The notes under the pieces: model-generated
Told to the model about the DNA's origin: nothing
Database searches by the model: none
Seen by the model: only the letters and a program-made list of their open reading frames with translations
Origin: an uncultured Gammaproteobacteria bacterium
Lineage (GTDB): Bacteria; Patescibacteriota; Patescibacteriia; UBA11705; DATKZF01
Reading direction: 5' to 3'
Assembly (NCBI GenBank): GCA_964411255.1
Contig: CAYPKD010000002.1
Coordinates: 162,141 to 226,140, forward strand
DNA length: 64,000 nucleotides
Shown: one piece after another, positions 5,521 to 31,130 of the stretch
How the letters are laid out: the number at the start of each line of letters is the position of its first letter
Position numbering within the stretch: the stretch's first letter is position 1
Position numbers and translations under genes: made by a program

Positions 5521-6435
5521 TTAAATGCCCAGATGTACCTTGATCATATCCAAGGTTAGATGAAGACCGCTTTTTCGTCCAATATCCCTGATCTCCAGAA
5601 CCAATTTGCCGTTTCGTACTCGAAATCTGGTATACCACCAGACTGAACGCAAGAACATTTCTATGTCTTTAACATCAGTTTGAGCAAATGGTTTTGCAGG
5701 ACGACAGATTTGTAGCCCATTGCCATTTTTTTGCATTATAACCTTCATTTGCGACAATCTCGTAATATATTTCTCAAAGCTTACTGGAGCTGGAGCATAT
5801 CTGTCATGTTCATAATTTGCCAAAGAATTTTTGATATAATTTCTCCAAATTCGGAAATTAGCTTCGTGTGGCCAATTCATTTGAGTATATAGGTAATTCA
5901 AGTCTCTAATAAATCCCATCCCTTCTTCAATTGAACACAAATCAAAATTAAACTGTATGCTTGCAATATGTCCCAGTCCAAATAGAGCCGGCCCATCAAC
6001 TTCAACCCAGATCTCATCTCGTTTATCAGGAATCATCAGATTATCATCAAGATGCTCATCCCATGAGACAGGCAGAAGCCTTGCCTGGCACATATGAGCA
6101 GCTTCTTCTATCATTGCAATCAGTATTTGTATGGTTACAAAAAGTCTGGAATCTTCAATATGATATGTGGGCGTATTAAGCTCCAGATTATTGCAGCCGA
6201 GCTCATAGACGAGAATAAATCCGTTTTTGCTCAGCTGTGTTATGTATCCATTTTTTCTTTGATCAACAACCCAGTTAAAATTTCCTGCCAGAATAGTAAG
6301 CATTTTTTGAGAAGTGGATCTATCTATTGGCCTTTGATTTTTATCAACAAAAAGAGTTTCAATCTCAATACCGATTTGTCTGTCCTGGGGTGTACAACAT
6401 TTAGCATTTTCAAAGTGCTGCCGCAATCTTTCCAC
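5521..6435 (-). CDS. carboxylate-amine ligase, glutamate-cysteine ligase family 2 (YbdK-like)
   Basis: N-terminal IGIEIETLFVD resembles the GCS2 LGxExEfxxV motif. Size about 300 aa. Confidence 0.5.
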   Translation of the reverse strand: MERLRQHFENAKCCTPQDRQIGIEIETLFVDKNQRPIDRSTSQKMLTILAGNFNWVVDQRKNGYITQLSKNGFILVYELGCNNLELNTPTYHIEDSRLFVTIQILIAMIEEAAHMCQARLLPVSWDEHLDDNLMIPDKRDEIWVEVDGPALFGLGHIASIQFNFDLCSIEEGMGFIRDLNYLYTQMNWPHEANFRIWRNYIKNSLANYEHDRYAPAPVSFEKYITRLSQMKVIMQKNGNGLQICRPAKPFAQTDVKDIEMFLRSVWWYTRFRVRNGKLVLEIRDIGRKSGLHLTLDMIKVHLGI

Positions 6436-6454
6436 TTTCCCTCCTTTTTGATCT

Positions 6455-6486
6455 CAAAACAAAAACCCCTTCCCTTTGGGAAGGAG
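6455..6486 (-). terminator. rho-independent terminator (minus strand) for gene 6744..7052
   Basis: Minus strand reads CCTTCCC-AAA-GGGAAGG followed by GGTTTTTGTTTT. Confidence 0.5.
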
Positions 6487-6743
6487 CTAAGCTCTATAAA
6501 TAAAGAAAAACTCAATTCTTTCCCAAGGGGTAGAGGTTTTTGTGATGATGTAATTTTATAAATGCTATTTTCATAACAATTACCATTATAGCAAGATTAT
6601 AAAGGATTGTCAAATGCAGGTATACGAAACTACGAATCAATTATGAATTATACGAAAATAAGTTTTTATCGCTATGAATATAGAATTTTTATTTTTAAAA
6701 AACGCCCAAAAGCAATGTAGCTATGAGCGAAAAATTGTGATCT

Positions 6744-12012: not shown

Positions 12013-12478
12013 AAGCGAGATAAGCAAGACGAGCAAGAAAGCGAGACAAGTAATCCTTTAATATGGAAAATAAAAAAGAAATAAAAAGTTTTAAAGATAT
12101 TATTGTTTGGCAAAAAGCTCATCAATTGGTTCTGGAAATATATAAGATAACCAAGAATTTCCCAAGCGAAGAGCGATTTTGTTTGGTCAGTCAGATGAGA
12201 AGAGCGGTCATATCAGTAACTGCTAATATTGTTGAAGGTTTTGCCAGGAAAAAGATTTTAGAAAGTTTAAATTTTTATAATATTTCAAATGCTTCTTTAG
12301 AGGAATTAAAATATTTTATATTAATTTGTTATGATATTAATCTAATAACTAAAAATACTTATAGCAAACTATTTGAAATGAGCAAAGAGACAGGAAGGAC
12401 TTTACATGGTTGGATACAAAGTCAAAAAGTTAATGCCAACTTGTCTTGCTCGTTTCACTAGTCTTGCTTGTCTCGCTT
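12013..12478 (+). mobile_element. inverted-repeat-flanked cassette carrying a four-helix-bundle gene (MITE-like, putative)
   Basis: Left inverted repeat AAGCGAGATAAGCAAGACGAGCAAGAAAGCGAGACAAGT at 12013-12051. Right inverted repeat ACTTGTCTTGCTCGTTTCACTAGTCTTGCTTGTCTCGCTT at 12439-12478, which encodes the last 7 codons and the stop. The same repeat family recurs at 13307-13327 and as an apparently empty pair at 34994-35083. Confidence 0.35.
12063..12461 (+). CDS. four-helix-bundle protein (TIGR02436-like; 23S rRNA intervening-sequence protein family)
   Basis: WQKAHQLVLEIYKITKNFPSEERFCLVSQMRRAVISVTANIVEGFAR is typical of the family. Confidence 0.7.
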   Translation: MENKKEIKSFKDIIVWQKAHQLVLEIYKITKNFPSEERFCLVSQMRRAVISVTANIVEGFARKKILESLNFYNISNASLEELKYFILICYDINLITKNTYSKLFEMSKETGRTLHGWIQSQKVNANLSCSFH

Positions 12479-12485
12479 TAACCAT

Positions 12486-13091
12486 ATGGGAGAGCTTACA
12501 AAAAAACAATCAGAAATTTTACGCTTTATAAGTGATTATGTAAAAGAATATGATTATGCGCCAAGCTATCGGGAGATAGGGGATAATTTTAAGATTTCAT
12601 CTCCAGCTACCATTCATCAGCATATTCAAACATTAAAATCCAAAGGATTTTTAGATGTTGATGCGCAAAAAGCCAGATCTATTGAATTGACCAATAAAGT
12701 AATCAAGATGGGCAGAAGCATTGAATTGCCTTTAGTTGGTATGATTACTGCTGGACAGCCGATTGAAGCAATTGAACAAAATGAAACAATGGCCGTGCCT
12801 GCTGATTTAGTCAGAGATGAGAATTCATACATCTTAAAAGTAAAAGGAGAATCAATGATTGAAGAAGGTATTTTTAACGGTGATTTTGTGATTATTGAAA
12901 GAAACAATTATCCTCAGAATGGAGACGTAGTTGTCGCTTTATTAAATAATGCGTATGTCACTTTGAAAAAGTTTTATCGGGAAGCGACCCGCATTCGGCT
13001 GCAGCCTGCCAATTCATCTATGAAACCTATTTATTGCAAAGACGTGGCTATCAGAGGAATTGTAAAAGCTATTATTCGTAAATTTGTTTAA
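12486..13091 (+). CDS. lexA: LexA repressor (S24 peptidase)
   Basis: N-terminal wHTH, Ala-Gly cleavage site (ITAGQP), and catalytic Ser/Lys context VKGESM ... TLKKF. Alternative start at 12468 lies inside the repeat. Confidence 0.8.
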   Translation: MGELTKKQSEILRFISDYVKEYDYAPSYREIGDNFKISSPATIHQHIQTLKSKGFLDVDAQKARSIELTNKVIKMGRSIELPLVGMITAGQPIEAIEQNETMAVPADLVRDENSYILKVKGESMIEEGIFNGDFVIIERNNYPQNGDVVVALLNNAYVTLKKFYREATRIRLQPANSSMKPIYCKDVAIRGIVKAIIRKFV

Positions 13092-13338
13092 TACATAACA
13101 AGCATGGGCAGAAGAATGGGGAGGAGTAAATTAATTCATTTTAATTTCTCCCTCTCCTTGTTCTTCTGTTAACCCCAGCTTTTCTCAACCTTATGTCAAA
13201 AAGAAAAATAAAATCAATTTATCGGAAGGCTGTTGGATTTTGGAGAGATTTGACTATCAATGTTTAATTAGAGTAAGGCATGTAAAACAAGTGTGATATA
13301 TATATGGCGACTTGTCTTGCTTGTCGCATTATTTATTT

Positions 13339-13587
13339 ATGCATGAAGTAATAAATCAACCAATTGAAGTAATTGCTGCTTTTACGAGAAGTAAAATGAT
13401 TCCGTTATTTTTTAAATGGAAAAATCGTCGCTATAAAGTTAGGAAAATTAATCTTGTCCATTCAGTTCGAGAGGGCAGGAATAAAATATACTTTTTTTCA
13501 GTATCAGATGCAGTTAATTTTTTTAAGATTTGCTTTGATACTGAGAAAGGGACTTGGAAATTATTAGAACTATATTATGAAGGTTAA
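13339..13587 (+). CDS. hypothetical small protein upstream of Y-family polymerase (position analogous to YolD/UmuD-like accessory)
   Basis: ORF 13312..13587. ATG at 13339 (MHEVINQ) is the more plausible start because the upstream part is a repeat copy. The YolD analogy rests on position only. Confidence 0.35.
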   Translation: MHEVINQPIEVIAAFTRSKMIPLFFKWKNRRYKVRKINLVHSVREGRNKIYFFSVSDAVNFFKICFDTEKGTWKLLELYYEG

Positions 13588-13684
13588 AACAAAAATTTTT
13601 AAATCAAACGTTCACTTTTGGGCTGAGTTGCATGGTAAAGACTATATTTTTGATTTCGATACTGAAACATACATCCCCGCTTAG

Positions 13685-13708
13685 TTATATATAACCGGTT
13701 ATATATAA
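13685..13708. promoter_or_regulatory. 24-bp perfect palindrome TTATATATAACCGGTTATATATAA upstream of dinB
   Basis: Perfect dyad about 70 bp upstream of the dinB start. Candidate operator. Confidence 0.35.
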
Positions 13709-13776
13709 AATGTGAGACACGAAAGGCGAAAGGATTAATTTATATTTTTCCTTTCGCTTTTCTATTTTCTAATATT

Positions 13777-14985
13777 ATGAAAATAATTCTTCATATAGAC
13801 ATGAATTCGTATTTTGCTTCAGTTGAGCAGCAGGCCAATCCTTTTTTGCGTGGTAAGCCAATTGTGGTCAGCGGAAAAGAAGATTCCCGGACCGTTATTG
13901 TGGCTGCTTCGATCGAAGCTAAAAAATTTGGAATAAAAACAGCAATGAATGTTTTTGAAGCAAAAAAACTTTGCCCAAATTTATATTTTGTTCAGCCAGA
14001 TCCGCAAAAATACGCTCAGGTAACCAATTCTTTTTTTGAAATATTTAAAAGGTATAGCAGTGAGGTTGAGCTTTTTAGTATTGACGAGGCTTTTTTAGAT
14101 TTAACAAAATATGTAAAAAATTTTAATCAGGCACATATTGTTGCAAAAAAAATTAAGGAACAAATTAAAAATGAAATAGGAGAGAGGATTACTTGTTCTG
14201 TGGGCATTTCATTTAATCGTATTTTAGCAAAATTAGCTGCTAATATGAAAAAACCTGATGGTCTGGTGGTGATTGAAGAGAAAGATAAGTTAAAAGTGTT
14301 AGATTCAATAAAACCAAATGATTTATGCGGATTGGGCCCTCGTCTGGCAAAGAGGCTTAATAATTTAGGATTGGATACTTTAAGGAAAATCAGACAAGCA
14401 AATAAGCAAATAATGCTGGATGAATTTGGCCCGTATTGGGCTCCGAGATTGCAAAAAATGGCAGCTGGAGAATTAGATGAAACAATCACTCCGTATTATA
14501 AAGAAGAGCAGCTAAAGTCAGCAGGTGCTTCTTATACCTTGCCTCAAAATACTTATGATAAAAATTATCTTTATCAAATATTAATTCAGCTGGTTGAAAA
14601 AGTATGCCGTCGGCTGAGGAAAAATAATTTGAGCGCAAAAACAACCGCATATTTTTTGAGATTTGAGGATTTTACTCATTGGGGAGAAAGAAAAACCTGG
14701 ACTAATTATTTATATGATGAGGTAAATTTTTTTGAATGGGCAAAATCGCAAATTGAAAGATTAATTTTTCCCAAGGCTGTCAGATTAATTGGCTTTAGAG
14801 CAGGAAATGTGATTGAAAGTAATAATCAAATGCCTTTATTTATAAAAGAAAGGAAAAAATTTTTATTAATAAAATCCTTGGATAAAATCAATGATATTTA
14901 TGGTGAACGTACCATTTTTAGCGCAGCCATGCTGGATGTGCCCAAATTAAAAAGGCGCGCAGGAGGATTTAAATTTGAAATCTAA
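13777..14985 (+). CDS. dinB: DNA polymerase IV (Y-family, DinB/UmuC-like)
   Basis: N-terminus ILHIDMNSYFASVEQ and the palm motifs are typical of Y-family polymerases. Confidence 0.85.
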   Translation: MKIILHIDMNSYFASVEQQANPFLRGKPIVVSGKEDSRTVIVAASIEAKKFGIKTAMNVFEAKKLCPNLYFVQPDPQKYAQVTNSFFEIFKRYSSEVELFSIDEAFLDLTKYVKNFNQAHIVAKKIKEQIKNEIGERITCSVGISFNRILAKLAANMKKPDGLVVIEEKDKLKVLDSIKPNDLCGLGPRLAKRLNNLGLDTLRKIRQANKQIMLDEFGPYWAPRLQKMAAGELDETITPYYKEEQLKSAGASYTLPQNTYDKNYLYQILIQLVEKVCRRLRKNNLSAKTTAYFLRFEDFTHWGERKTWTNYLYDEVNFFEWAKSQIERLIFPKAVRLIGFRAGNVIESNNQMPLFIKERKKFLLIKSLDKINDIYGERTIFSAAMLDVPKLKRRAGGFKFEI

Positions 14986-19958: not shown

Positions 19959-20000
19959 ACGCTACATGATTTTACAGATTTGCTACAAGATATTACAGAT

Positions 20001-20438
20001 ATGACAAAATACATTTATGAGAATTTAACGTATGATTTGATTGGTATATTTTATGAAGTTTATAATTGCTTGGGTCATGGTTATAAAGAAAGAACATATT
20101 GTAATGCAATCATGAAACTTTTACGGAAAAATAATTTGGATTTTGCATATCAATTTAAAGTGCCGGTAAAGATAAGAGATGAAATAGTATGTAAAAGGTA
20201 TTTAGACTTTTTAATAGATGATAAAGTGATAGTTGAGATTAAAGTAGGTAATAAAAGCTCAGGAAGAGATTTTAAGCAAATAAAAGAATATTTAAATTTA
20301 TCTGGATATAAACTTGGACTTTTAGTATTATTTCGAGATAAAGATGTTAAAATATATCGTATTGCCAATTTATACAAAACTGAGATCCGTATCATCTGTA
20401 GCAGATCTGTGGATCTCGTAGTAACATTATGCAAGTAG
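20001..20438 (+). CDS. GxxExxY protein (PD-(D/E)xK-like, TIGR04256-type small cassette protein)
   Basis: GYKERTY (G-x-x-E-x-x-Y) and DFLIDDKVIVEIK. Hairpin-rich flanks. Inserted between hydrogenase genes. Confidence 0.55.
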   Translation: MTKYIYENLTYDLIGIFYEVYNCLGHGYKERTYCNAIMKLLRKNNLDFAYQFKVPVKIRDEIVCKRYLDFLIDDKVIVEIKVGNKSSGRDFKQIKEYLNLSGYKLGLLVLFRDKDVKIYRIANLYKTEIRIICSRSVDLVVTLCK

Positions 20439-20956
20439 TTCACGAAGAAACACAAAAATTTAGTTTAATGATGGGCTTATTAGTTTTAGGTTCAATGGTT
20501 ATTATTGGCGCATATTTAGTCATTCAATGGCAAAAAGGAGTATTATCAGAACTTTCCACCTGGCCGTATATATTTTTAGGATTGATTTTGATTTTAGATA
20601 TATTTTTTATTGCAAATTTTTATCAATTGAAAATTATTTTAACAAATGATCGTTTAATATTTGGATTTGGAATTCTGCGAAGAAAAATAAAACTTTCAGA
20701 TATCAAAGAGATAACCTTAGAAAAATTTGATTTTCAGCGCTATATGGGTTATGGAGTGAGAACAGGAAGAGATAAATCAATTGGCTATGTGGCAAGAAAT
20801 TCCGATGGTATTCGGTTAAAAGTGGCAAATCAAAAAGACTTTTTTATTACCTCTGATGATGCGTCCAGATTAAAATCCATGATTGAATCACAATTAGGCG
20901 GATCAAAATCATATGAAAAAGAACCAAATATTGGAATCAGCTTTGAAGCTGAATGA
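20429..20956 (+). CDS. membrane protein with bacterial PH-like (DUF304-like) domain
   Basis: Two TM segments followed by LTNDRLIFGFGILRRKIKLSDIKEI. The start may instead be the internal Met at 20468. Confidence 0.45.
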   Translation: MQVVHEETQKFSLMMGLLVLGSMVIIGAYLVIQWQKGVLSELSTWPYIFLGLILILDIFFIANFYQLKIILTNDRLIFGFGILRRKIKLSDIKEITLEKFDFQRYMGYGVRTGRDKSIGYVARNSDGIRLKVANQKDFFITSDDASRLKSMIESQLGGSKSYEKEPNIGISFEAE

Positions 20957-20959
20957 TTT

Positions 20960-21703
20960 ATGAGTAAAAAGAAATTACAAGTAGGAATTTTATCAATGAC
21001 ATCTTGCGAGGGATGCTGCTTTGCTTTACTAGATGCAACGGAAAAGTATTTAGAATTGTTTAAAGAAGTTGATTTTTCTTTTTTTCGATTATGGAAGCCA
21101 GAAGAAAATATAGCATTGAAAAAATTTGATATTTGTTTTGTAGAGGGTAGTCCAATTACTAAGCATAATATTGAGCAGCTAAAAACAGCCAGGCAAAACA
21201 GCAAAATTTTAGCCAGCTTTGGAACATGTGCGCATTTGGGCGGTATTTATCATTTGAAAAATTATTATAATAAGGACGAAATTATAAAAGAAGTATATAC
21301 AGAAACAAAAGGCATTGATAATCCATATGTATATCCAGCAAGTCATTATGTGAAAATAGATTTTGATGTACCAGCATGTCCAATTGATGCTAAAGAATTT
21401 TTTAGGATGATTAATGAAATAATTATTGGACGCTTGCCAAAAATTCCACAGCATACTGTATGTTATGATTGCCAGAAAAATGGATATCAGTGCGTTTTGC
21501 AAAAAGGCGAAATTTGTTTAGGTCCAATTACCCAAACTGGCTGCAATGCGATTTGCTTGAAAAGTAAACAGGGCTGCTGGGGTTGCAGGGGATTGATAAA
21601 AGATGCAGAAGTTGAGAACCTTACAAAATTATTGAAAAAGAAACATACGACAAAGGAAATTAAAGACGCTCTGGAAATTTTTGGGATTAGGGATTTTATT
21701 TAA
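20960..21703 (+). CDS. hydD: [NiFe] hydrogenase small (delta) subunit
   Basis: N-terminal Cys motif SMTSCEGCC, later GTCAHLGG and ACPIDAKEFF. Confidence 0.7.
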   Translation: MSKKKLQVGILSMTSCEGCCFALLDATEKYLELFKEVDFSFFRLWKPEENIALKKFDICFVEGSPITKHNIEQLKTARQNSKILASFGTCAHLGGIYHLKNYYNKDEIIKEVYTETKGIDNPYVYPASHYVKIDFDVPACPIDAKEFFRMINEIIIGRLPKIPQHTVCYDCQKNGYQCVLQKGEICLGPITQTGCNAICLKSKQGCWGCRGLIKDAEVENLTKLLKKKHTTKEIKDALEIFGIRDFI

Positions 21704-23139
21704 AATAAAACGACTGGAAACCTGTTAGAATCCAGCCGTGATATTTAAGGCGTGCCCCAAGTACAAGGATTTGGAGGCCCAGCCTTACTTTCCGGCCAAG
21801 GAAAGAGGCCAAAAAAGTACTTGGAGCACATAGATGCCCAAGGCGCAGAAAGTTTTATAACCAGGAATTCTATCAGAATTCTGATGGTTGTTGACCTGGT
21901 ATAATCAAACCGCACCTTGGGACAATGCTGCTGTATGCAGCAAATTAAGTTTATTAAAAATTTGTATTTCAGTCAAGTATTTAAAAATTAAAGACTGAGC
22001 ACTCGTTGAGACTCAGTCTTTATAGTTGTTTAGGAGGTAATCTGAAGAATATTGTTGAACCCATTTCCTCAGACTGCGATGCATAATTAAAATTAATAAG
22101 TGAGCCTACATATTAGCTTTATTTGCCACATTACCTATGCATTAACAAAATTGGCAAAGCTAGCTTAGGCCTCGTAGCTTCAGAGTGGTTCTGAAGCCGA
22201 ACCTGACCCTCCTCGATCAGTTCAGATTCTACATTTTTACTTTCCATGTTGAAAGTGCTGGGTTCAGAGCATGTAGATTATCATAATAATATAGCATAGT
22301 TTTTAAATAAAGTCAATAGATTAAATTTATACAAAATTAAAAGCTGAAAGTATGACTTTCAGCAAGTAAATAAGAAGGGGGAAGAGGTTGCACAGAAAAG
22401 AGATTTTGCCCACTTTTCTGTACTATGTTTCATAGATTCCGGGTAAAAATTTGTGAAGACCAGCAAAGATCAGCAAAACATTACAGACATTTTATTGCGG
22501 CCACTACTTAAACCCTGGGCGGCATTAAAAGGTTTTGTAGCTATACTGAAATGCTGAGCTAACCCTCTAAAATTAGCTCCTTCCTGTGTTCATCTGGGCA
22601 TGAGTAATAGAAAACAGGATCATATATATTTTATCATAATGTGATAAAAATGTCAAGTATTAGTTTTTTAAAAAAGAAAGACTGAGAACTCATGGAGTCT
22701 CAGTCTGTCAACGTTTTTGGAGGTGTTCAGAAAAATTGTGAGCCCTGGTCTTCTGAACGAGGTTTTTAATTAATTTAAAATTAATTATAGTTGAGCTATT
22801 ACTGCACCTTCCTGACCCTTCATATAAAAAATTTTTTTTACGCATGATTCATTTATAGATCACACGCACGAGAAAGGGGTGGGGCAGGCAGATGCAAAGC
22901 TCGTAGCTGTTTCTGCAGAACTGCTGCAGATTCAGCCTGCTGGTCCTCCAAACCAGCTGATCCATTCTCCTTTGGATGTCCAAATTTAGAGGCACCCAGG
23001 GCTCAAGGAGATTATCATGGATCATGTTACATATATAGTATAGCATATATTTCAATAAAAGTCAATATGTATTATAAAAAATTAGCTAATTTTAGCTAAA
23101 ATTTACAAAAAATATTATTGCTTAGATATTAAATAAAAT
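21704..23139. repeat. 1.4-kb ORF-free, hairpin-dense region of diverged tandem repeats inside the hydrogenase operon
   Basis: Two homologous units of about 680 bp begin GTCAAGTATT (21972 and 22653). Each carries a conserved stem AGACTGAG(A)/(T)CTCAGTCT (21990-22022 and 22678-22709) whose loops differ. Further hairpins at 21757/21817, 22183-22203 and 22342-22365. GC-rich islands. Confidence 0.6.
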
Positions 23140-24402
23140 ATGAAAACAATAAAAATAAACCATATTGCTAAAACTGAAGGTCACATGAGTTTTATAGGCT
23201 CATTGCTTGAGGGTGATATTGCAAAAGCCAAACTGGAAACTGAAGAAGGTGCTAGACTGTTTGAAGGCATGGTCATTGGCCGGCCATATTATCAAATGCC
23301 AGTAATTGTAGCCAGAATCTGCGGTGTTTGCCCGATTGTTCACAATTTAGCTTCGGTTAAAGCAATAGAAAATGCTTTTAATGTCAAAGTGAGTAAAGAA
23401 GTTATTTTACTTCGAAAAATATTGGAATTTGTTCAGATAATTCATAGCCATACTTTGCACATGTTCTTTTTGTCTTTTCCTGATTTGGTTGGAGTTTCAA
23501 ATAATACAGATATTGTAAAAAAATATCCAAAGCAGTCGAAGATTGCATTGGAAGTCAGGGATTGGGCTGTGCAAATGGCAAAGCTTATTGGCGGCAGAAC
23601 TGTGCATCCGATCAATAGTGTAGTCGGTGGATTTAATGTTTTGCCAGATGAAGAAAAGCTAGCTTTATATTTAAAACAAATTCCAAAACAGGTAAAGCTA
23701 TCGGTTAAACTTTTTGACTTTTTAAAAAATCATAAAATTCCAAAGTTTTCAAACCCTTCAAATTATTTGGCTTTAAAAACGAAAAATGAATATGCTATTT
23801 ATGATGGCAAAGTATATTTTTTGGATAATAAAAAAACACAGGATTCAAAAATGTTTTATTCAGACGTCGCTGAAGAAAGCTTGCCATATCAGACAGTGAA
23901 ACGTGCTTATCATTTTGATCAGCCAATGATGTGCGGCGCTTTGGCCAGAATAAATTGTAATTGTAATCAATTAAATAAAGTGGCAAAGAAAAACTGGAAA
24001 GAACTTAGAGTGAAAATGCCAGATTATAATCCATTTCATAATATTTTAGCTCAAGCAGTAGAAGTTATACATTGCTATGAAGAATGTGATAAATTAATTT
24101 CTCAATATATGAGAATCAAAGATAAAAATATACAAGCTAAATATAAAGTAAAAGAGGGAAGAGGGATTGGAGTGATTGAAGCGCCGCGGGGTCTTTTGTT
24201 TCATGAATATAAATTTGATAAGCAAGGATTAATGAAGGAATGCAATATTTTAACGCCAACATCCTTGTTTATTGCTAATTTAGAAAAAGATTTAGAACAA
24301 TATTTACCAACATTAAACAATTTAACAGATGAGAAAAGAGATTTAATGATAAAAACATTGATCAGGGCGTATGACCCTTGTGTTTCCTGCGCCACTCATT
24401 AG
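23140..24402 (+). CDS. hydA: [NiFe] hydrogenase large (alpha) subunit
   Basis: N-terminal RICGVCPIVH (RxCGxCxxxH). C-terminal DPCVSCATH is the very end of the protein, so there is no C-terminal extension. Confidence 0.85.
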   Translation: MKTIKINHIAKTEGHMSFIGSLLEGDIAKAKLETEEGARLFEGMVIGRPYYQMPVIVARICGVCPIVHNLASVKAIENAFNVKVSKEVILLRKILEFVQIIHSHTLHMFFLSFPDLVGVSNNTDIVKKYPKQSKIALEVRDWAVQMAKLIGGRTVHPINSVVGGFNVLPDEEKLALYLKQIPKQVKLSVKLFDFLKNHKIPKFSNPSNYLALKTKNEYAIYDGKVYFLDNKKTQDSKMFYSDVAEESLPYQTVKRAYHFDQPMMCGALARINCNCNQLNKVAKKNWKELRVKMPDYNPFHNILAQAVEVIHCYEECDKLISQYMRIKDKNIQAKYKVKEGRGIGVIEAPRGLLFHEYKFDKQGLMKECNILTPTSLFIANLEKDLEQYLPTLNNLTDEKRDLMIKTLIRAYDPCVSCATH

Positions 24403-27996: not shown

Positions 27997-29541
27997 ATGT
28001 CCACTAAGAAAAATTTACCATTAATACTTTTAATCCTTGACGGCTGGGGCATTGCTCCCAAAAATAAAGGCAATGCAATAGAATTGGCTAAAAAGCCAAA
28101 TTTTGATTTTTTATTAAAAAAATATTCACATACCAGCTTATTTGCTCATGGCAGGCATGTGGGATTACCAGAAAATCAGGTAGGAAATTCAGAAGCAGGG
28201 CATTTAAATATTGGCGCTGGGCGTGTAGTAAAGCAGGATTCTGTTATTATATCAAAAGCGATTAAGGATGGGACATTTTATAAAAATACTGCTATCTTAG
28301 AACTGATAAAGCATGTAAATAAAAATAAATCAGATTTGCATCTGATGGGCTTAATATCACTTCATAATAGCCCTCACATGAGTTTGGAGCATTTATATGC
28401 TTTAACAAAAATGGCATGTAAACAATGTAAAAATATATATTTGCATCTTTTTACTGACGGACGTGACTCACCGCAATTTGCTGCTGCAGATATTTTAAGA
28501 CAGGTTCAGAAAAAATTACCTGAAAAAGTAAAAATTGTTTCTTTGGTTGGAAGATTTTATGCTATGGATAGAAATAAAAGATGGCAGAGAACCCAAACAG
28601 CTTATGAGCTTTTAATCAGCGGCAAAGGAGAAGTGTTCGAAGATTTTGATAAAGCAGTTTTGCATTCATATAACAAAGAATTAACCGATGAATTTTTGGA
28701 GCCGAGCTTAATTGTACCAAAAGGGAAAAAGCCTGTTTTAATAAAGGACAATGACGGTATTGTGTTTTTTAATTTACGATCTGACCGGGCCAGGCAATTA
28801 ACAAAATGTTTTGTCCAAAAAGATTTTAATAAAATAAATCCAAAGTCATTTAAGAGAAAAAAGAAATTAAAAAATTTAGCTTTTGTCGCATTGACTGATT
28901 TTGGCCCTGATTTAAATAATATTTTAACCGCCTATCCGAGCGTAACAGAAAAAAATACGATGCCAATTCTTTTACAGAATTTAAGGCAGGTGTATATTTC
29001 AGAAACCGAGAAGTATGCCCATGTGACATACTTTATCAATGGCGGTTCTGACAAGCCGGTTAATGGAGAAGATAGAATAAATATAGCTTCTCCTAATGTA
29101 AGAAGCTATGATTTAAAGCCTGAAATGAGTGCTTATAAGATCACTGATAAAATACTGGATTTATTATCAAAGAAAAGCTATGATTATTATGTGGTAAATT
29201 TAGCTAACCCAGATATGGTCGGTCATACAGGCAATCTTGAAGCTGGGATAAAGGCGATTGAGGCTACTGATAAATGTATTGGAGCAATTTATAAAAAGTT
29301 TTTAGCAGCTAAAGGCACTTGTATTATCACAGCTGATCATGGTAATGCAGAAAAAATGCTTGATTTAAAGACTGGTGAAAAATTTACTGAACACACAGTA
29401 AATAAAGTACCGTTTATTTTTGTTAATAGTAAAAATGTTAAATTGCGGTCTAATGGGCGTTTATCTCATATAATGTCAACAGTGCTTGATGTGATAAATC
29501 AAAAAAATCATAAAATTAGATCAAAGTCATTAATAAACTAG
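27997..29541 (+). CDS. gpmI: 2,3-bisphosphoglycerate-independent phosphoglycerate mutase (copy 1)
   Basis: LILDGWGIA and GNSEAGHLNIGAGR. 514 aa. Confidence 0.8.
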   Translation: MSTKKNLPLILLILDGWGIAPKNKGNAIELAKKPNFDFLLKKYSHTSLFAHGRHVGLPENQVGNSEAGHLNIGAGRVVKQDSVIISKAIKDGTFYKNTAILELIKHVNKNKSDLHLMGLISLHNSPHMSLEHLYALTKMACKQCKNIYLHLFTDGRDSPQFAAADILRQVQKKLPEKVKIVSLVGRFYAMDRNKRWQRTQTAYELLISGKGEVFEDFDKAVLHSYNKELTDEFLEPSLIVPKGKKPVLIKDNDGIVFFNLRSDRARQLTKCFVQKDFNKINPKSFKRKKKLKNLAFVALTDFGPDLNNILTAYPSVTEKNTMPILLQNLRQVYISETEKYAHVTYFINGGSDKPVNGEDRINIASPNVRSYDLKPEMSAYKITDKILDLLSKKSYDYYVVNLANPDMVGHTGNLEAGIKAIEATDKCIGAIYKKFLAAKGTCIITADHGNAEKMLDLKTGEKFTEHTVNKVPFIFVNSKNVKLRSNGRLSHIMSTVLDVINQKNHKIRSKSLIN

Positions 29542-29543
29542 TT

Positions 29544-31130
29544 ATGGCTCAACAAGTACCAAAACCTTTAACCCTTATTGTTTTAGACGGCTGGGGAGTG
29601 GCTCCTCCATCTGATGGCAATGCCATTTCATTGGCTAACACTCCAAATATTGACCGGTTTATCGCTAATTATCCGGCAATGACAATTTTAACTTCAGGTG
29701 AATCTGTTGGATTATCTGAAAATGAACCGGGTAATTCAGAGGTTGGACATCTAACAATGGGTATAGGCAGGGTTTTCTATCAAAATTTGCCCAGAGTGAA
29801 CCGTGCAATAAAGAACGGAGATTTTTTTAATAATCAGGCTTTTTTTAAAGCGGTAAATCATGTAAAAGTGAACAAATCTAAACTGCATTTGATAGGGATT
29901 TTAAGCGATGGAAATATTCAAGGGTCAATAGATCATTTATACGCCTTGCTTGAATTGGCCAGACAACAAAAGGTAAGCGAGGTATACATTCATGTTATTT
30001 TGGACGGACTTGACTCTTTAGAAAGTGGTGGAAAAGATTTTATAAATGATTTGGAAAAAAAGATTCATGAAACAGGAGTTGGTGAAATCGCATCAATATC
30101 AGGCAGATTTTTTGCATTAGATAGAGACGGTCATTGGGACAGAACCCAAAAAGCTTTTTATGCAATTGTACACGGACAGGCAGATGAATTTTATGATAAT
30201 CCGGCTGAAGCGATTGAATCTTCTTATAAAAAACAGATTTTTGATCAGGGGTTTCGGCCAGTTGTTATTACCAAAGGCGGTAAGCCAAAAACTACAGTTA
30301 CTGAAAAAGACGCTATAATTTTTTATAATATAAAAGGCGACCGTGCCAGTCAGCTTACAAAATCCTTTGTGCTGGATGAATTTTTAAAATTTGAAAGAGG
30401 ACCTAAAATTGCAAATTTGGTTTTTGTCACTATGACTCAATATGAAAAAGATTTACCAGTGGATGTTGCTTTCCCAAAGCAAATTGTTAAGACTTCATTA
30501 ACAAAAGCAATTAGCGATAACGGCCTTAAGCAGCTTTACATCGCTGAAACTGAAAAATATGCCCATGTTACTTTTTTCTTAAGTGGTAATACTGAGGAGC
30601 CGTTTATTGGCGAGGATAGAGTGGTAATACCGTCTCCTCAGATTGATTCTTATGTGCAAAAGCCAGAAATGAGCGCATTGGAAATTAGTAAACGGCTTGA
30701 AAAGGAAATTCTAAGGGAAGTATATGATTTTATTGTGTGCAATTTAGCCAATGCTGACATGCTTGGCCATACAGGGGATATTGAAGCGACGAAAAAGGCT
30801 ATTGAAACAGTGGATAAAGTAATTGGCACTATTGTGAATTTGGTTTTATCAAAGGATGGTGCGGTAGTATTGGTCGGTGACCATGGTAATGCTGAGGAAA
30901 TGAGAGATTTACAAACAGGAGAAATAAATAAAGAGCATACAAAAAATCCAGTTCCCTTTATAATTATTGGCAAAGAGTGGGAAGGAAAAAACATAGGAGT
31001 ATCTGAAAGCATTGGAAATGACTTAAGCTTGATAAAACCGGTTGGAATTTTAGCAGATGTAGCGCCAACAATATTGAAAATTTTAAATTTACCCGTTCCA
31101 GAGGAAATGACAGGTAAATCATTGATTTAA
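29544..31130 (+). CDS. 2,3-bisphosphoglycerate-independent phosphoglycerate mutase paralog (copy 2)
   Basis: LIVLDGWGVAP and GNSEVGHLTMGIGR. 528 aa. A tandem paralog of the preceding gene. Confidence 0.75.
   Translation: MAQQVPKPLTLIVLDGWGVAPPSDGNAISLANTPNIDRFIANYPAMTILTSGESVGLSENEPGNSEVGHLTMGIGRVFYQNLPRVNRAIKNGDFFNNQAFFKAVNHVKVNKSKLHLIGILSDGNIQGSIDHLYALLELARQQKVSEVYIHVILDGLDSLESGGKDFINDLEKKIHETGVGEIASISGRFFALDRDGHWDRTQKAFYAIVHGQADEFYDNPAEAIESSYKKQIFDQGFRPVVITKGGKPKTTVTEKDAIIFYNIKGDRASQLTKSFVLDEFLKFERGPKIANLVFVTMTQYEKDLPVDVAFPKQIVKTSLTKAISDNGLKQLYIAETEKYAHVTFFLSGNTEEPFIGEDRVVIPSPQIDSYVQKPEMSALEISKRLEKEILREVYDFIVCNLANADMLGHTGDIEATKKAIETVDKVIGTIVNLVLSKDGAVVLVGDHGNAEEMRDLQTGEINKEHTKNPVPFIIIGKEWEGKNIGVSESIGNDLSLIKPVGILADVAPTILKILNLPVPEEMTGKSLI

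Follow-up and report, generated by a model that had tools for sequence, protein, structure and literature searches.

The 1436-nt gap between the small- and large-subunit NiFe-hydrogenase genes (21704-23139) probably consists of four independently transcribed, structured, non-coding sRNA genes that run antisense to the hydrogenase genes. This assessment covers their identity as sRNA genes only, with the mechanism excluded, and their transcription start sites (TSS) and 3' ends are predictions from the sequence. The predicted genes are new and lineage-specific; they belong to families without a database match, in a narrow group of ultra-small CPR/Patescibacteria, and the RNAs would act as RNA molecules, i.e. 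as regulators.

Predicted transcription units of the hydD-hydA gap

The gap is the largest of the window (the whole 64-kb stretch of DNA analyzed), and the earlier claim that it contains no credible ORF was borne out. The GC content of the RNA units is 0.44-0.47, compared to about 0.31 for this AT-rich genome. A misassembly check indicated that the block is genuine, as ENA, Logan, and JGI, which are independent of each other, all have contigs with an identical 3443-nt hydD-block-hydA stretch. According to our in silico analysis, four units lie head to tail on the minus strand in the order D, C, B, A, each running from its higher coordinate (predicted TSS) to its lower one (predicted 3' end).

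20960-21703, plus strand (opposite to the sRNA units): hydD, NiFe-hydrogenase small-subunit gene
21704-21941, minus strand: predicted sRNA A, ~238 nt, second family; P1 (GCUGC…GCAGC), long P2, conserved AUCUAUGUGCUCC, P3 enclosing GCCUCCAAAU
21711-21738, minus strand: predicted terminator hairpin of sRNA A, with a U tract extending into the hydD stop codon
21948-21976, minus strand: predicted promoter of unit A, TTGACT-17 nt-TAAACT, 9/12, includes the first GTCAAGTATT
21980-22281, minus strand: predicted sRNA B, ~302 nt, paralogue of D; P1 hairpin, GAGGAGG-loop hairpin, CUUCAGA hairpin then CUACGAG, UACCUCCUAA
21992-22019, minus strand: predicted terminator hairpin of sRNA B, then a U tract
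22288-22316, minus strand: predicted promoter of unit B, TTGACT-17 nt-TATATT with TG, corresponding to ATATAGCATA…AAAGTCAATA
22333-22621, minus strand: predicted sRNA C, ~289 nt; P1 hairpin with an 18-nt invariant loop, AGAGGG-loop hairpin, CCUCUUCCCCC
22343-22363, minus strand: predicted terminator of sRNA C, then UUUUAAUUUU; detected by terminator scan
22628-22656, minus strand: predicted promoter of unit C, TTGACA-17 nt-TAAAAT with TG, 11/12, includes the second GTCAAGTATT
22667-23030, minus strand: predicted sRNA D, ~364 nt; nested 5' hairpin, UUUGGAGG hairpin, CUGCAG hairpin, C-rich CCCCACCCCUUU segment, ACCUCCAAA
22679-22706, minus strand: predicted terminator hairpin of sRNA D, then a U tract
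23037-23065, minus strand: predicted promoter of unit D, TTGACT-17 nt-TATACT with a TG-extended -10
23078-23093, no strand: 16-bp perfect palindrome AAAATTAGCTAATTTT (self-match), between the unit D promoter and the hydA start
23102-23130, plus strand: promoter-like site for hydA, TTTACA-17 nt-GATATT, 9/12
23140-24402, plus strand (opposite to the sRNA units): hydA, NiFe-hydrogenase large-subunit gene

The four best promoter matches within the block all belong to the minus strand, with a hairpin and U tract 230-360 nt downstream of each. These promoters are close to the sigma-70 consensus, and three of the four are TG-extended, scoring 10-11/12. TG-extended sites scoring at least 10/12 occur 12 times in the 64 kb, three of them in the block; the same promoter type is also found at genuine gene starts in the window, including those of hydB and tRNA-Glu.

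The preliminary description had read the block along the strand of the hydrogenase genes, as two diverged 680-bp units each containing a conserved stem with a divergent loop and a promoter-like end. We found every one of the elements on which it was built: GGAGG occurs at 22033 and 22719, and the block also has the GC-rich islands, the AT-rich tract, and ends of the form ATAGCATA…AAAGTCAATA. Hairpins with the stem AGACTGAG(A)…(T)CTCAGTCT are located at 21992-22019 and 22679-22706, with differing loops, and GTCAAGTATT is at 21972 as described, with the second copy at 22652 instead of 22653. What these elements form has to be read differently. The signals all belong to the minus strand, and the real repeat is a transcription unit of 240-360 nt, present four times and in two families; the supposed 680-bp units resemble each other significantly in two places only, a promoter stretch of 33 nt (82%) and the final ~70 nt with the terminator (76-85%). 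The conserved stem corresponds to a Rho-independent terminator, that of units B and D in the case of the AGACTGAG stem. The promoter-like end is a promoter firing in the opposite direction, ATATAGCATA…AAAGTCAATA being the promoter of units B and D, and GTCAAGTATT the -35 box of units A and C.

Two families of structured RNAs

Units B and D are homologous (nhmmer E 3e-8), and their P1 is kept by compensatory changes (UCUACAU/AUGUAGA vs. UCUCCUU/AAGGAGA). B, C, and D are built alike: the 5' hairpin is followed by RGAGG, a central domain that varies, CCUCY at 49-58 nt before the 3' end, and finally the terminator. In all 7 complete copies, RGAGG is complementary to CCUCY, and the two covary; unit C has the AGAGG:CCUCU version. 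The A family, with homologues in the related loci L011, L012, L009, and L024, is laid out as P1, P2, P3, and terminator.

Folding of the minus strand gave an MFE of -122.4 kcal/mol for D (z -8.7) and of -100.5 for A (z -9.0), compared to z -4.8 for the plus strand of D and -84.7 (z -5.5) for that of A. The z-scores of B and C are -3.4 and -2.7, and those of the homologues range from -4 to -7, except for the truncated L024u2 (-1.3). Because the whole diverged units aligned poorly in MAFFT/RNAalifold, this approach was replaced by module-wise alignments with helices in fixed register. In these alignments, which contain 2-6 sequences and for which some structures were chosen on these very sequences, P2 of the A family is paired in 72 of 72 cells with compensatory changes at 9 of 12 positions, and P3 with the terminator is paired in 88% of cells against about 40% in slid controls, with 7 double changes. 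The terminator stem covaries within this family. Changes of the G-U to A-U type fit minus-strand pairing only. The conserved unpaired loop of C is UAUUACUCAUGCCCAGAU.

Selection on RNA structure

To compare the block with that of a relative, we used L007, whose HydA is 92% identical. Our results showed that all 18 positions of the -35 boxes checked and 15 of 18 of the -10 boxes are retained in L007, and that terminators are 95-97% identical, RNA bodies 80-92%, and spacers 63-77%. The spacers diverge at the neutral rate; third codon positions of hydA differ by 27%. In the promoter of unit D, both hexamers are identical while the spacer between them is 71% identical, and the body of unit C is 92% identical while its flanks are at about 65%. 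Substitutions cluster in unpaired columns and break no pair. In D, the 226 paired columns have 8 changes, each of which keeps the pair and 2 of which are compensatory, whereas the 144 unpaired columns have 41; in C, the 3 changes in paired columns all preserve pairing.

No frame of the units stands out for coding constraint, and no ORF with a Shine-Dalgarno (SD) sequence was detected in them. A small-ORF reading of unit D (a 68-aa ORF, read through in L007) was rejected because of its substitutions: the longest ORF, which lies in D, has 3 synonymous and 21 non-synonymous codon changes. The suggestion of tandem sRNA genes, or expressed structured RNAs, in the preliminary description is thus supported by the promoters, the terminators, purifying selection, covariation, and the absent coding signal. 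Its two other suggestions, a large cis-regulatory element controlling hydA and a mobile-element remnant, are not: every signal is antisense to hydA, and the search of the 64 kb and of 1.08 Mb of related DNA gave no dispersed copy, phages, plasmids, and viral contigs gave no match, and relatives have the units at the same fixed position.

Distribution and database searches

Homologues, with 1-4 units, are restricted to the gap between hydD and hydA in close relatives (HydA at least 66% identical). All are antisense, with the first promoter about 10-110 nt from the hydA start. In distant CPR operons, hydD and hydA overlap by 11 nt or adjoin, and the relative L014 has no unit and a 53-nt gap before hydA. 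Genes inserted near the units differ among relatives (PDDEXK_3, CBU_0592, YibE_F), with no constant protein neighbour. Contigs of relatives frequently break inside the block.

We detected no dispersed copies in the 64-kb window and 1.08 Mb of related loci. Neither the remaining gaps of the window nor the hydD-hydA gaps of distant loci, where these are larger, contain sRNA units of this kind. At the Rfam 15 gathering score, the sole match in the whole window is tRNA-Glu at 2484. An E-value scan of the block gave best E-values of 2-7, far under threshold, and the same scans of L007, L009, L011, and L012 matched no family; the families covered by Rfam 15, of which the units are not members, include RNase P, tmRNA, SRP, 6S, riboswitches, ribozymes, LhrC, RsaE, and CsrB. 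ARAGORN found neither tmRNA nor tRNA in the block. A blastn search of the block against phages and plasmids returned one chance AT-rich match of 57 nt, and the A-type pattern had no match in viral contigs. Its 8 matches in GTDB genomes all come from unrelated taxa of high GC content (Kocuria, Acidimicrobiaceae, Rhodothermales, and others) and are at chance level, so the lineage is not captured there. A second A-type pattern had no match in a metagenome collection; this collection is without these samples, because the pattern does match JGI-derived loci. A literature search on CPR sRNAs found nothing relevant.

Possible mode of action

The array would have arisen in one small clade of Patescibacteria, by insertion into the normally overlapping hydD/hydA junction and subsequent local amplification to the 1-4 units seen in relatives. 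As to how the RNAs work, the mechanism we prefer, tentatively and by analogy, is SD pairing of the LhrC/RsaE kind, which we regard as possible rather than probable. Exposed C/U-rich segments (CCUCC, CCCC, or CCUCU) would pair with GGAGG Shine-Dalgarno sites and repress translation; the RGAGG element within B, C, and D would mask their C-rich segment. Sites of the GGAGG type are found 5' of roughly 15 of the 62 window genes (about a quarter), the RNA strand shows an enrichment of about 4.5-fold for CCUC[CU], and every unit of the window has a C-rich motif, with a predicted P(unpaired) of 0.56-0.71. C-rich SD-targeting sRNAs are a precedent (PMC4132741).

Several observations count against SD pairing. 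The RNAs are bigger and far more structured than typical base-pairing sRNAs, and the A-family copy of L009 is without CCUCC. In the two shortest homologues, L011u2 and L012u2, prediction has the whole CCUCC element paired with GGAGG (P ~1; P(unpaired) ~0), so this element may be a purely structural closing helix and not a seed. Within the 64-kb window, the search gave no convincing target, and target counts for the most conserved single-stranded segments are not above those of shuffled sequence. Uncoupling of hydA from hydBGD would be an almost unavoidable side effect, since the operon is met by four strong promoters firing towards it and hydA seems to have gained a promoter of its own.

The units could also act mainly in cis, in which case their function would be the link to the hydrogenase. 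Convergent promoters and RNAs perfectly complementary to any hydBGD read-through would then insulate or down-regulate hydA relative to hydBGD, by transcriptional interference and/or cleavage of the sense-antisense duplex, a possibility that we consider rather doubtful. It is in line with the antisense orientation of all homologues in the hydD-hydA gap, their first promoter lying so close to the hydA start, an ancestral arrangement of overlapping genes, and the promoter-like site of hydA; in addition, the terminators work in one direction only, which would let plus-strand transcripts read through. However, selection acts beyond the promoters, on RNA secondary structure and minus-strand G-U pairs, L014 does without any unit, and vertical descent with local duplication can account for the conserved position. 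Cis-encoded antisense RNAs and "excludon"-type convergent units have strong promoters against an operon and transcripts complementary to the read-through mRNA. The block is like them in both respects, but overlaps coding sequence by only 1-2 nt of the hydD stop codon and has efficient-looking terminators and its own conserved structure.

It is unlikely, in our estimate, that the RNAs bind protein or are part of ribonucleoproteins, serving as scaffold, sponge, or decoy in the way of 6S, CsrB, or Y RNAs, with conserved folds and invariant loops as binding sites. Their length of 240-360 nt, very stable multi-helix folds (z down to -9), invariant unpaired segments (the 18-nt loop of C and AUCUAUGUGCUCC of A), and hairpin loops with GGA/GGAGG suggest such a role. 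Against it, no Rfam family matches even at E <=10, each RNA has one or two GGA loops, unlike CsrB-type sponges, and no conserved neighbouring protein gene travels with the units.

That the block is what remains of a non-coding element of mobile or selfish, MITE-like nature, or of a gene that has decayed, for example YibE_F, seems very improbable to us. The number and order of units vary among relatives, contig breaks within the block are common there, other genes are inserted into the hydrogenase operon, and a 14-nt inverted repeat is found at both block ends; this repeat is probably due to chance, since it is AT-rich and weakly conserved. But no further copies or phage, plasmid, or viral matches were obtained in the searches described above, and the bodies are under purifying selection. 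A decayed YibE_F gene was rejected, as the block contains no YibE_F remnant and L009 has YibE_F alongside units. It is hardly credible that the block serves hydA as a cis-regulatory leader or processing region on the plus strand: it lies immediately 5' of hydA and its plus strand also beats shuffled sequences, as the reverse complement of any structured RNA would, but the strong promoters and U-tract terminators are all on the minus strand, which folds more stably and alone allows pairs such as those in G-U to A-U changes, and GGAGG, at ~17 nt from possible starts, is too far away to serve as a plus-strand SD. Plus-strand 11-codon ORFs 3' of GGAGG were rejected on this spacing and on lack of conservation of the peptide.

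Comparison with known systems

In Listeria monocytogenes, LhrC1-4 lie in tandem. The block resembles this array, in which homologous sRNA genes with their own promoters and terminators lie head to tail in one intergenic region, and, like the C-rich UCCC-motif sRNAs (LhrC, RsaE/RoxS, RNAIII, FsrA) of low-GC bacteria, it is found in an AT-rich genome. The LhrC/RsaE group has GGAGG-complementary C/U-rich motifs in loops or single-stranded stretches by the terminator (PMC4132741), and the motifs of the block may be placed likewise. In contrast to the ~100 nt and simple two-hairpin fold of LhrC/RsaE, the units have 238-364 nt, 2-3 times more, and multi-domain folds. Neither their sequence nor a covariance model links them to LhrC, RsaE, or any Rfam family, the C-rich element of B, C, and D has an internal complementary partner, unlike in the LhrC group, and the host is a Patescibacterium.

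PrrF1/PrrF2 and OmrA/OmrB are tandem paralogous sRNAs which are short, Hfq-dependent, and proteobacterial, and lie in ordinary intergenic regions. As in these pairs, local duplication would have produced adjacent paralogues with conserved ends and divergent middles; unlike them, the block comprises two families and four units, antisense between two genes that are normally translationally coupled. Large structured ncRNAs such as raiA, ROOL, and OLE were reportedly recognized by the Breaker laboratory as GC-rich islands in AT-rich genomes (the GC-IGR approach). The units are likewise GC-rich, highly structured, conspicuous in an AT-rich genome, and, by prediction, independently transcribed, but they match none of those families in Rfam 15 and have a far narrower phylogenetic range.

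Implications for the hydrogenase locus

CPR/Patescibacteria have genomes of about 1 Mb and, to our knowledge, almost nothing is known about RNA-based regulation in them. The 1.4 kb of predicted, selectively maintained structured RNA genes offers a concrete candidate set for a metatranscriptomic check, and in annotation the "noncoding gap" should be entered as four opposite-strand ncRNA genes. Since it separates two hydrogenase genes which, in CPR relatives further away, overlap or directly adjoin each other, the array marks a lineage-specific rewiring of hydrogenase expression. It is conceivable, though we would not expect it, that the A-type and B/C/D-type RNAs are two undescribed Patescibacteria-specific classes of large structured ncRNAs, with a function tied to the [NiFe] group-3b hydrogenase. 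If so, they could set the ratio of small to large subunit or respond to redox or nickel status, would have replaced the ancestral hydD-hydA translational coupling, and would be the first functional regulatory RNAs defined for CPR bacteria.

Two further elements lie between unit D and hydA. An mRNA initiated at the plus-strand site 23102-23130 would be nearly leaderless. The palindrome AAAATTAGCTAATTTT at 23078-23093, a candidate operator, is nearly identical in L007, where the spacer around it is 77% identical.

Four predicted transcription units between hydD and hydA

The preliminary description placed a gap without a credible ORF between two hydrogenase subunit genes, and our annotation agrees:

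20960-21703, [NiFe]-hydrogenase small-subunit gene, hydD (Pfam Oxidored_q6)
21704-23139, block of 1436 nt, no credible ORF
23140-24402, large-subunit gene, hydA (NiFeSe_Hases)

In length the block far exceeds all other gaps of the 64-kb window, and its GC content reaches 0.44-0.47, against about 0.31 in the surroundings. It is real and not a misassembly, as ENA, Logan and JGI contigs agree at 100% identity over the 3443 nt of hydD, block and hydA. The gene order (hydB-hydG-…-hydD-…-hydA-hypA) is that of a group-3b (sulfhydrogenase-type) hydrogenase, and HydA homologues from Kuenenbacteria, Falkowbacteria and Parcubacteria (53-57% identity) assign the host to the Patescibacteria/CPR.

Other features of this operon were also recorded. 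The last residue of HydA (codon 24400-24402) is the His of the C-terminal DPCxxCxxH motif, so the large subunit has no C-terminal extension for a maturation endopeptidase to cleave; hypA alone is encoded beside it. Two additional genes lie between hydG and hydD (19980-20438 and 20429-20956). One encodes a GxxExxY/PDDEXK_3 protein missing from relatives, the other a 175-aa protein without Pfam match that has a 158-163-aa counterpart in relatives. Because relatives carry other inserts here (CBU_0592, YibE_F), the operon is an insertion hot spot. Three related loci have a minus-strand ORF of 96-98 aa without Pfam match between hydA and hypA (L011 2212-2508, L012 11347-11637, L013 1846-2136), which is absent from the window, where the two genes are 6 nt apart.

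The minus strand carries all four top sigma-70 matches of the block, and 230-360 nt downstream of each lies a GC-containing hairpin followed by a U tract. The block therefore reads as four head-to-tail transcription units, convergent to hydBGD and divergent from hydA.

Predicted units of the block (all minus strand; ends predicted)
Unit D: 23030→22667, 364 nt; promoter 23065-23037, TTGACT-17-TATACT (10/12, TG); terminator hairpin 22706-22679, U tract UUCUUUUUU
Unit C: 22621→22333, 289 nt; promoter 22656-22628, TTGACA-17-TAAAAT (11/12, TG); terminator hairpin 22363-22343, U tract UUUUAAUUUU
Unit B: 22281→21980, 302 nt; promoter 22316-22288, TTGACT-17-TATATT (10/12, TG); terminator hairpin 22019-21992, U tract UUAAUUUUU
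Unit A: 21941→21704, 238 nt; promoter 21976-21948, TTGACT-17-TAAACT (9/12); terminator hairpin 21738-21711, U tract UUUUAUUUU

Only 12 TG-extended sites score at least 10/12 in the 64 kb. Three are in the block; the other nine are correctly oriented upstream of genes or tRNA-Glu, one of them before hydB, and this is a genuine promoter type in this genome. A perfect 12/12 TG-extended promoter (6585-6613, minus) about 150 nt upstream of the start of gene 5521-6435 (minus) implies that this gene has a long 5' leader or that the 308-nt gap 6436-6743 yields another small transcript.

All strings quoted in the preliminary description were found, at most one base off, but its two units of about 680 bp give way to these four minus-strand units of 238-364 nt. 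Its motif GTCAAGTATT corresponds to the -35 box (TTGAC) in units A and C, its promoter-like end ATATAGCATA…AAAGTCAATA to the minus-strand promoter of B and D, and its conserved stem with divergent loop to their terminator; its GGAGG is complementary to a CCUCC element present in the RNAs. Reading the block as a plus-strand leader was rejected, since promoters and terminators are on the minus strand, which also folds better (D, -122.4 kcal/mol, z -8.7, vs -117.1, z -4.8; A, -100.5, z -9.0, vs -84.7, z -5.5).

Conservation of the units

Units B, C and D are also present in the related loci L007/L008 (HydA 92% identical), where the contig stops inside B. As a yardstick of neutral divergence we used hydA third codon positions, 27% of which differ between the window and L007.

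Identity of block elements to L007
-35 hexamers: 18/18
-10 hexamers: 15/18
Terminator hairpins: 95-97%
RNA body C: 92%
RNA body D: 86%
RNA body B: 80%
Inter-unit and promoter spacers: 63-88%

On a consensus fold computed from these same two sequences, substitutions are depleted at paired positions: 8 changes in 226 paired columns vs 41 in 144 unpaired ones for D, 3 in 158 vs 18 in 131 for C, and 4 in 98 vs 49 in 163 for B. No pair is broken in the three units, and all eight paired-column changes of D keep pairing (two compensatory, four of G-U type). By substitution pattern no reading frame stands out, and the longest minus-strand ORF (68 aa, in D) has 3 synonymous and 21 non-synonymous codon changes; the units are therefore non-coding. 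The analysis as a whole shows four predicted sRNA genes whose promoters and terminators are, by their sequence, under selection.

Two structured RNA families

Units B and D are paralogues (nhmmer E 3e-8). They share the promoter, a 5' hairpin with compensatory differences (UCUACAU/AUGUAGA vs UCUCCUU/AAGGAGA), a hairpin that displays GAGGAGG or UUUGGAGG, a further hairpin with CUACGAG after it, an AU-rich stretch, ACCUCC(U/A)AA, and the terminator AGACUGAG. The same layout is found in C and in single units of two more distant relatives (L011, 303-498; L012, 9288-9496). Each of the 7 complete copies of this type has an RGAGG, at 49-85 nt from the 5' end, that can pair over 5-8 bp with a CCUCY situated 49-58 nt before the 3' end. 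This pairing covaries (AGAGG:CCUCU in C vs GGAGG:CCUCC elsewhere), with flanks A…U in B vs UUU…AAA in D, and in the two short homologues the helix is predicted at a probability of about 1 and closes the central multi-helix domain.

Unit A falls into a separate family, with homologues in L011 (HydA 77%), L012 (73%), L024 (78%) and L009 (81%), the last with the RNA split into two units. Its helix P2 is paired in 72/72 cells across six homologues (28-58% in slid controls), with compensatory double changes at 9/12 positions. Helix P3 and the terminator are 88% paired vs about 40% in slid controls, with seven pairs changed on both sides (covariation score 0.31 vs 0.08), and the segment AUC(C)UAUGUGCUCC is nearly invariant. 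Fold z-scores of all homologues are -4 to -7, except for the truncated L024u2 (-1.3). The RNAs thus have a conserved, covarying secondary structure.

Distribution and origin

The hydD-hydA gap is the only place where units occur; they are antisense in every case, and the first promoter is within about 10-110 nt of the hydA start.

Units in the hydD-hydA gap, by HydA identity to the window
Window, 100%: 4
L007, 92%: at least 3
L009, 81%: 2, preceded by an inserted YibE_F gene
L024, 78%: at least 2
L011, 77%: at least 2
L012, 73%: 2
L014, 71%: none; YibE_F, then a 53-nt gap
L015, 66%: 1 short unit, gap of 192 nt

At hydrogenase loci of more distant CPR (40-58%), most hydD-hydA pairs have an 11-nt overlap or are separated by a few bases; a few have gaps of 54-105 nt, and the larger gaps of L030-L032 (276-408 nt) hold no such units. 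Neither nhmmer searches with all units nor a covariance model for the 3' module of A gave further copies in the window and 1.08 Mb of related loci. No unit could be assigned to a known RNA family. Rfam, phages, plasmids and viral contigs gave no match, and pattern scans of genome and metagenome collections gave chance matches or nothing; the families are therefore new to the databases searched and appear confined to one small clade. A mobile element was rejected, given the restriction to this gap and the lack of phage, plasmid or viral matches. We read its origin as insertion into a once-coupled hydD/hydA junction, with local duplication and shuffling afterwards. The assemblies of several relatives (L006-L008, L010, L011, L013, L024) end within or beside the array, which suggests strain-level variation or repeat-induced assembly problems.

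Taken as a real set of new predicted sRNA genes, which is well supported, the block is notable as a large, strongly structured RNA array in a CPR genome that splits an otherwise tightly coupled hydrogenase gene pair. Among known arrangements, tandem multicopy sRNA loci come closest, for example PrrF1/2, OmrA/B or LhrC1-4, whose genes lie in tandem.

Possible function

We infer that the unit products act as RNAs. In this AT-rich genome, each is predicted to expose at least one C/U-rich segment, namely CCUCC (A, B and D), CCUCUUCCCCC (C) and CCCCACCCCUUU (D), with similar segments in the homologues L011A, L015u and L024u1 (P(unpaired) about 0.95-0.99). The RNA strand is enriched about 4.5-fold in CCUC[CU], and roughly a quarter of the window genes have a GGAGG-type SD. 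SD-binding C-rich motifs are a hallmark of LhrC (a multicopy family of this kind), RsaE, RNAIII and FsrA in low-GC bacteria (PMC4132741). For these reasons we tentatively favour a mechanism in which the RNAs would repress translation by targeting SD sites, with the internal RGAGG as a mask; we hold it as possible only, because RGAGG may be a mere structural helix and the RNAs are unusually large.

Independently of SD targeting, four strong promoters in convergent orientation must interfere with read-through that starts at the hydB promoter, and hydA has its own promoter-like site (23102-23130), which would yield an almost leaderless mRNA. The array is therefore likely to uncouple hydA from hydBGD. 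We think it less likely than not that this cis effect is its main function. A protein-binding or RNP role of the RNAs is unlikely.

The interval from the unit D promoter to the hydA start contains a perfect 16-bp palindrome, AAAATTAGCTAATTTT (23078-23093), which overlaps a second one. It is almost unchanged in L007 while the spacer around it has diverged, and a regulator of hydA and/or sRNA D may use it as an operator. Twelve bases of the palindrome (AGCTAATTTTAG) are found again at 22567-22578, inside the RGAGG hairpin of unit C.

Two further gene clusters were recorded. Upstream of the operon, 12063-14985 (L004 1104-4026) encodes a 23S_rRNA_IVP/bAvd-like four-helix bundle, LexA, an 82-aa ORF and a Y-family polymerase (IMS), the last three kept in relatives, and resembles an SOS mutagenesis cassette. 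At 27997-31130, two paralogous genes in tandem encode cofactor-independent phosphoglycerate mutases of 514 and 528 aa; they come after pgk, a SIMPL-domain gene and enolase, and every relative examined has kept the pair.
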